Source of the DNA: Escherichia coli
Lineage (GTDB): Bacteria > Pseudomonadota > Gammaproteobacteria > Enterobacterales > Enterobacteriaceae
Length of the DNA stretch: 64,000 nt
Assembly (NCBI RefSeq): GCF_024502345.1
Contig: NZ_JALDNN010000001.1
Strand: one strand, 5' to 3'
This document shows, piece by piece, positions 12,850-13,606 of the stretch. A model generated the notes under the pieces. It saw only the letters and a program-made list of their open reading frames with translations, did no database searches and was not told where the DNA came from. Both the position numbers and the translations under genes were made by a program. Every line of letters begins with the position of its first letter. The first letter of the stretch is position 1.

Positions 12850-13606
12850 GCTGGCGTCTGGTTTATGCATCCGCTGTTGGAACGTCGCACATTAGCGCTG
12901 ATTTACCTTGTCAGGATGCCTGCCAGATGCAGGTTGCCTGGCTAAATGACCAGCAGCCATTACTGGTGATGTTCCTTGCTGATGGCGCAGTAGCGTTTCG
13001 CAGGGAGGAGAAGGCGCGAAGCTCGCCGTCAATGAAGCGATGACGTTTATGGTGCAAAAAGTACAGGACGGTGAATTGGGGCTTAATGATGTCCTCGCCA
13101 CAAATATGGTACTGACCATTCGTCAACGACTTTTTGCCGAGGCAGAAGCCAAAGCATTAGCAGTTCGCGATTTTGCCTGCACGTTTCTGGGATTGATTTC
13201 ATCGGCTAACGGCACATTGATTATGCAAATTGGCGACGGCGGTGTAGTGGTGGATTTTGGTCACGGTCTGCAATTACCGCTTACGCCGATGGTGGGTGAA
13301 TATGCCAATATGACGCATTTCATTACCGATGAAGATGCCGTTTCCAGACTGGAAACTTTCACCAGCACTGAGCGTGTGCATAAAGTTGCAGCATTTACGG
13401 ATGGTATCCAGCGACTGGCGTTAAATATGTTGGATAATTCTCCGCATGTGCCTTTCTTTACCCCTTTTTTCAATGGACTGGCGGCAGCAACGCAGGAACA
13501 GCTCGATTTATTACCTGAATTGTTAAAGCAGTTTTTGTCCAGCCCGGCGGTAAACGAGCGTACCGATGATGATAAAACGTTGGCACTGGCGCTGTGGTTA
13601 CCATGA
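12846..13606 (+). pseudogene. yegK: PP2C-family Ser/Thr phosphatase YegK (PphC), disrupted by a 1-nt frameshift
   Basis: Two track ORFs in different frames (12846..13043, 65 aa; 13040..13606, 188 aa). The second frame reads ...SVSQGGEGAKLAVNEA directly upstream of its Met; joining the frames by adding one base near 12990-13000 restores one 253-aa protein. Confidence 0.8.

Follow-up and report, generated by a model that had tools for sequence, protein, structure and literature searches.

Does the stretch between yegL and yegI in this E. coli chromosome hold two small genes or one broken phosphatase gene and, if the latter, is the break real? The question concerns pphC (yegK), whose product has been characterized as a Mn2+-dependent PP2C-like Ser/Thr phosphatase (Rajagopalan & Dworkin, bioRxiv 10.1101/303594). 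The window, that is, the whole stretch of 64,000 nucleotides analysed here, is E. coli chromosome and runs from baeS through mdtD-C-B-A (− strand), three ibs/Sib repeats and yegL-pphC-yegI (+ strand), and onward through yegD, alkA, dgcE, udk, dcd, asmA, the colanic-acid cluster and the O112ab O-antigen cluster to gnd. A first-pass annotation had read a single-base frameshift splitting yegK/pphC at 12985-13045 and had offered three explanations for it, namely a genuine pseudogene, a sequencing or assembly error and, as the least likely, programmed frameshifting.

The gene was identified by a megablast search with a 901-nt query, which returned 5,414 complete-genome E. coli records annotated as pphC. 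When the window gene was aligned with pphC of strains F9792 and OkiPb01695, the intact sequence GCAGGTAGC was matched in the window by GCAGTAGC, with a single gap at alignment column 145. This gap is the sole difference from the intact F9792 gene (762 nt, protein WP_001718504.1) and, the gap aside, the window pphC is identical to the intact alleles of F9792, NCTC9064 and O169:H41 strains; the comparison with NCTC9064 also places the deletion at window position 12990. Direct alignment to intact E. coli yegK, which had been proposed as a check, thus bears out the single-base frameshift and locates the missing base, one G lost at 12990. The interval first assigned to the frameshift matches the exact stretch from the deletion through the premature stop, and the remark that the site is not a long homopolymer also holds, as the deletion falls in a GG dinucleotide without a homopolymer run. 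With the G restored, pphC becomes an ORF of 762 nt and 253 codons.

The two ORFs of the window gene (Table 1) lie in different frames (12846 mod 3 = 0, 13040 mod 3 = 2), and the frame of ORF2 is therefore −1 relative to that of ORF1. Translated from 12935, the downstream frame ends in ...WRSSVSQGGEGAKLAVNEA right before its first Met, and the peptide preceding that Met, ...SVSQGGEGAKLAVNEA, is exactly the one reported at first. The stop of ORF1 and the start of ORF2 share an ATGA, and the two pieces therefore make up one 253-aa protein once the base is restored (65 + 188 = 253), again in agreement with the first reading. Native PphC residues 49-65 (GSVSQGGEGAKLAVNEA) are absent from both ORFs.

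Table 1 Features of the pphC locus and of other parts of the window (positions are those of the window)
Feature	Position	Strand	Description
pphC (yegK) pseudogene	12846..13606	+	PP2C-family Ser/Thr phosphatase gene; 761 nt here versus 762 nt intact
1-bp deletion site	12990	+	Single G versus GG in intact alleles; codon 49, Gly49 GGT; inside motif II (D46-G-A-G-S)
ORF1, 65 aa, GTG start	12846..13043	+	Native residues 1-48 (motif I and D46-G47-A48), then 17 out-of-frame residues VAFRREEKARSSPSMKR, TGA stop
ORF2, 188 aa, ATG start	13040..13606	+	Native Met66-Pro253, PP2C motifs downstream of motif II
ATGA overlap	13040..13043	+	ORF2 ATG 13040-13042 over ORF1 premature TGA 13041-13043; ...GAAGCGATGACG..., read directly from the sequence
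yegL, 219 aa, intact	12190..12849	+	vWA-domain protein; stop overlaps the pphC GTG (GTGA); Pfam VWA on the identical gene in another contig
yegI, 646 aa, intact	13603..15543	+	Ser/Thr kinase; ATG overlaps the pphC stop (ATGA)
dgcE (yegE)	17999-21316	−	Diguanylate cyclase, 1105 aa when intact; nonsense Q552 to TAG, stop codon 19661-19663
ibs/Sib repeats	11096-12043		Three tandem type I toxin-antitoxin repeats, ~85-91% identical to one another
SIB_RNA (Rfam)	11240-11382, 11568-11710, 11896-12043	−	Three matches at 140-146 bits
O-antigen cluster	50400-64000		Type O112ab (wzx and wzy annotated as O112ab family)

The ten closest haplotypes among 5,413 complete genomes (H1-H10) all carry an intact 762-nt pphC and are annotated as such, at 99.7-99.9% identity (902 nt against the 901-nt query), and the best eight (99.9%) differ over the 901 nt solely by the gap. 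As expected of an inherited pseudogene, the nearest relatives thus have an intact single ORF, and the deletion is therefore derived; it is also recent, because no secondary decay has accumulated. The haplotype itself is rare, with at least 99% identity in only 10 of the 5,413 complete genomes and about 92% identity to K-12. When a 71-nt probe across the site was compared with complete genomes, every match was aligned with a gap, the best identity being 98.6% (71 of 72 columns). The codon-49 G-loss allele was not found in the complete genomes examined; the probe aligned to 1,522 of the 5,414 matching records, and the absence of the allele in more divergent haplotypes rests on a sample of 60 records.

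The deletion recurs outside the window. Lookup of the 188-aa ORF2 product located three further carriers, in which gene callers had called ORF2 with a PF13672 match, and all three, GCA_050022275.1 (NCBI), SRR24000611 (Logan) and SRR33420591 (Logan), carry the deletion allele GCTGATGGCGCAGTAGCGTTTCGC and lack the intact one. Between the window and GCA_050022275.1 there are 14 SNPs in 20,567 nt, and between the window and SRR24000611 there are 17 SNPs and 1 indel in 11,736 nt; the state of dgcE also varies, being intact (1105 aa) in GCA_050022275.1, split into 949 + 145 aa in SRR24000611 and Q552* in the window. SRR33420591, whose 3.4 kb are 100% identical to the window, could come from the same isolate, which leaves three as the firm count of independent strains (the window, GCA_050022275.1 and SRR24000611). 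The same lesion is thus found in independent sequencing of distinguishable isolates, and its presence in three other public assemblies supports the genuine pseudogene among the explanations first offered. We conclude that the pphC lesion is very probably a genuine, recent and vertically inherited loss-of-function mutation, and that the loss of one G from the GG pair in codon 49 would go back to the ancestor of a small lineage of E. coli.

Two other explanations have to be weighed against an inherited deletion. If the true genome reads GG with an intact pphC, the base would have been lost in base-calling, polishing or assembly; assembly errors most often take the form of one missing base, and no complete RefSeq E. 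coli genome matched by the 71-nt probe showed the deletion allele. Yet the same deletion occurs in three other assemblies from two different pipelines (NCBI and Logan), and two of these three carriers are distinguishable strains, which makes a sequencing or assembly error very unlikely. The lesion site is also a dinucleotide and not a homopolymer, and in the top-ranked probe records the gap is the sole difference, with GG in all of them, which argues against a context-specific systematic error. The remainder of the window is essentially indel-free against independent genomes: over 25 kb compared with NCTC9064 there are only 2 indels despite 1.7% divergence, the pphC deletion and, at 11985, a change from G5 to G4 in an intergenic G-run, and the 13.6 kb shared with six O112ab genomes contain no indel at all. 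The other explanation is recoding, by programmed −1 ribosomal frameshifting or by transcriptional slippage, which would yield a full-length phosphatase in spite of the deletion. The two ORFs overlap by 61 nt (12983-13043), and a −1 shift anywhere there would give a near-native protein, but a shift elsewhere in the overlap would still replace residues within or next to motif II. A scan of ORF1 (12846-13043), the overlap included, found no zero-frame slippery heptamer of the form X_XXY_YYZ; within the gene, heptamers of this kind occur solely at 13462-13471, far downstream. There is also no homopolymer run suited to transcriptional slippage. The first-pass annotation had also raised the question of whether reference orthologues share the two-ORF layout. 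This was looked for, and the closest haplotypes and 57 of 60 evenly sampled records were found to carry pphC as one ORF, of 762 nt or, in the K-12 type, of 753 aligned nt, the three exceptions being unrelated lesions; in 5,398 genomes, one place accounts for 80% or more of the pphC query. Orthologues in some 5,400 genomes are a single uninterrupted ORF, which speaks against any history of recoding. With no slippery site in the overlap and single-ORF orthologues, we reject programmed frameshifting, in agreement with its initial ranking, and consider that it has almost no chance of being correct.

What an inherited deletion at this site would do to the protein follows from where it cuts the domain. 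The restored 253-aa PphC matches Pfam PP2C_2 (PF13672) over residues 11-220 (E = 4.3e-49), and the break at codon 49 therefore bisects the domain, which is divided between two frames and is not found whole on any single polypeptide. The native part of ORF1 ends in ...L-A-D46-G-A, and the frame break lies three residues past the metal-binding Asp46, inside PP2C motif II. Asp46 of PphC has been placed in motif II, and the D46N substitution abolishes activity on pNPP, beta-casein and autophosphorylated YegI (bioRxiv 10.1101/303594). The break thus falls within motif II and parts motifs I and II from the remaining catalytic core, so that D46 lies in ORF1 and Met66 onward, with the downstream PP2C motifs, in ORF2. 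The window pphC is a member of the PP2C/PPM family by descent, and not an intact one.

Translation from the normal GTG start would exit the native frame after Ala48, add 17 wrong residues and end at 13041-13043, and the resulting 65-aa product would be without any PP2C motif downstream of motif II. The sole other possible product would be the 188-aa fragment from Met66, which would be without motifs I and II. As judged from the sequence, neither ORF would hold a complete active site and no polypeptide could assemble the Mn2+-dependent one; from the domain anatomy and the published D46N mutant we strongly infer that the phosphatase activity of the window pphC is lost. The 65-aa ORF1 product gave no result in an exact-sequence lookup, which did work for the 188-aa ORF2 product, and gene callers have probably never called ORF1. 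A PDB sequence search with the restored PphC gave no relative at E ≤ 0.1, and NCBIfam gave no matches for intact PphC or for either fragment.

Both neighbours of the broken gene are intact, and the consequences for the kinase YegI could go either way. The identity of YegI as a kinase and its in vitro dephosphorylation by PphC have been described (bioRxiv 10.1101/303594, 10.1101/819920), and the ATGA overlap of pphC and yegI has been taken as a sign of co-expression (bioRxiv 10.1101/819920). The premature stop lies 560 nt before yegI, and the frameshift could cut YegI synthesis through loss of the apparent translational coupling at this overlap or through polarity; alternatively, YegI may lose its cognate phosphatase and stay phosphorylated. 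The outcome could thus be either reduced synthesis or an unopposed kinase. The ATGA at 13040-13043 is a chance stop-start overlap that could allow termination-reinitiation, and it may partly restore coupling into yegI.

This overlap also bears on whether the split pphC keeps some function. Reinitiation at the ATG at 13040 would give either a 188-aa non-catalytic, YegI-binding remnant or, with the 65-aa piece, a two-part enzyme, and would keep translation flowing into yegI. The stop-start overlap is present in the sequence, and the same kind of 4-nt overlap is seen at yegL/pphC and pphC/yegI (10.1101/819920 for the latter). ORF2 is otherwise undamaged, but this is equally explained by the mutation being recent. 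A two-part enzyme would be short of active-site residues, given that neither piece contains residues 49-65 and, with them, the remainder of motif II, and no Shine-Dalgarno-like sequence is found at a normal distance from the ATG at 13040, the GGAGG-like run at about 13003-13012 lying some 28 nt upstream. Moreover, the pphC lesions of other lineages lie at unrelated sites or are due to IS1, and this points to a gene that is simply dispensable. We therefore hold retained function to be highly improbable. There is likewise only a slim chance that reinitiation yields a dead 188-aa PP2C remnant, keeps yegI coupled and leaves expressed YegI without its cognate phosphatase; if it did, the strain would represent a naturally arisen and possibly selected 'kinase-on' form of a vWA-PP2C-kinase module about which little is understood. 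The reading that we retain is an ordinary, recent, lineage-specific null allele of a characterized gene.

The gene and locus are those of PphC in REL606 and MG1655, with yegL-pphC-yegI beside mdtABCD and PP2C_2 in the restored 253 aa. The organization is of the REL606 type, in which pphC overlaps yegI by ATGA with no yegJ between them. In contrast to those strains, the window gene is broken at codon 49 and no full-length enzyme is possible. The module also resembles the TerY-P triad of a TerY-like vWA protein, a PP2C phosphatase and a Ser/Thr kinase (Anantharaman et al. 2012 and Gao et al. 2020, summarized in PMC10542128), a predicted signalling switch with relatives that act as anti-phage systems (PMC10542128). 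The gene order vWA (yegL), PP2C (pphC) and STK (yegI) is the same, with overlapping stops and starts, and the three genes are adjacent in one operon. The defence-system profiles of PADLOC-DB v2 do not recognize the module: no families were matched by YegL or PphC, and YegI gave only weak matches to other kinase families, PD-T4-6 and MkoA (E = 1.5e-4 to 4e-3). The likeness to TerY-P is thus a resemblance in architecture, short of established membership; it is relevant to a possible dispensability or rapid turnover of the module, and not to the frameshift.

Disruption of pphC is not confined to the lineage of the window. In a sample of 60 records, taken at even steps through the ranking of the 5,414 matches, three have pphC annotated as a pseudogene, two of them with an extra A at codon 159 and one truncated by IS1. 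The extra A is carried by strains 51243816-SK1A and NRZ94505, whose pphC alleles otherwise differ in sequence. In EP91B, IS1 is inserted after about nt 435 and parts the truncated pphC from yegI, and OkiPb01695 has an A5-to-A4 loss at codon 72. The lesions in these four RefSeq genomes share with that of the window a sporadic, lineage-specific inactivation of pphC with yegL and yegI intact; they differ from it in being independent lesions, none of which is the codon-49 G loss. F9792, the carrier of the nearest intact pphC haplotype, has a frameshift annotated in the adjacent yegL, so that the gene inactivated within the three-gene module varies from strain to strain. The window allele adds one case to this pattern of several independent pphC lesions and a yegL frameshift, and the sporadic inactivation of yegL-pphC-yegI across E. 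coli fits a conditionally dispensable function. In the published study, no conditions were found under which pphC was robustly expressed (bioRxiv 10.1101/303594).

For annotation, the two ORFs should be treated as one frameshifted pphC pseudogene and not as two genes, a correction of little wider importance. Strains with the deletion are natural pphC-null, yegI-intact backgrounds that could be used to study YegI substrates or phenotypes, and the deletion is a clean lineage marker for a small O112ab-carrying clade.

The surroundings of the lesion have a history of their own. Mismatches to NCTC9064 number 3, 0 and 0 per kb across yegL-pphC-yegI (at about 12-15 kb of the window), and 16-40 per kb in the flanks, over mdtABCD and yegD-dgcE. 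The module is near-identical while its flanks diverge, and its haplotype is therefore shared by otherwise diverged backgrounds. The window is of mosaic ancestry, which suggests, as the simplest explanation, that the yegL-pphC-yegI haplotype was moved by recombination. The best complete genome is only 98.3% identical to the first 25 kb of the window, a value that led us to consider a Shigella-like or error-rich origin. We rejected such an origin: the genes of the window are free of IS insertions, just two of them are disrupted across the 64 kb, and at the O-antigen end the sequence matches complete O112ab E. coli genomes with 100% identity.

The second disrupted gene is dgcE, 6.7 kb from the pphC lesion. 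Its nonsense mutation, an A at 19663 on the + strand in place of the G of NCTC9064, GCA_050022275.1 and SRR24000611, is, among the carriers of the pphC deletion, private to the window. In SRR24000611 the gene is split by a change from C9 to C8 in a homopolymer (its position 9023, window 20887-20895), which gives the two ORFs of 949 and 145 aa. The gene may thus have been knocked out twice independently in this small clade, although the C-run change could be an assembly error. Upstream of yegL, the three ibs/Sib repeats each have a SIB_RNA match in Rfam (Table 1). At the other end of the window, the 13,601 nt of the O-antigen cluster align gaplessly and at 100% identity with six complete O112ab genomes, which include one O112ab:H8 strain and strains named STEC1589 and STEC1590.
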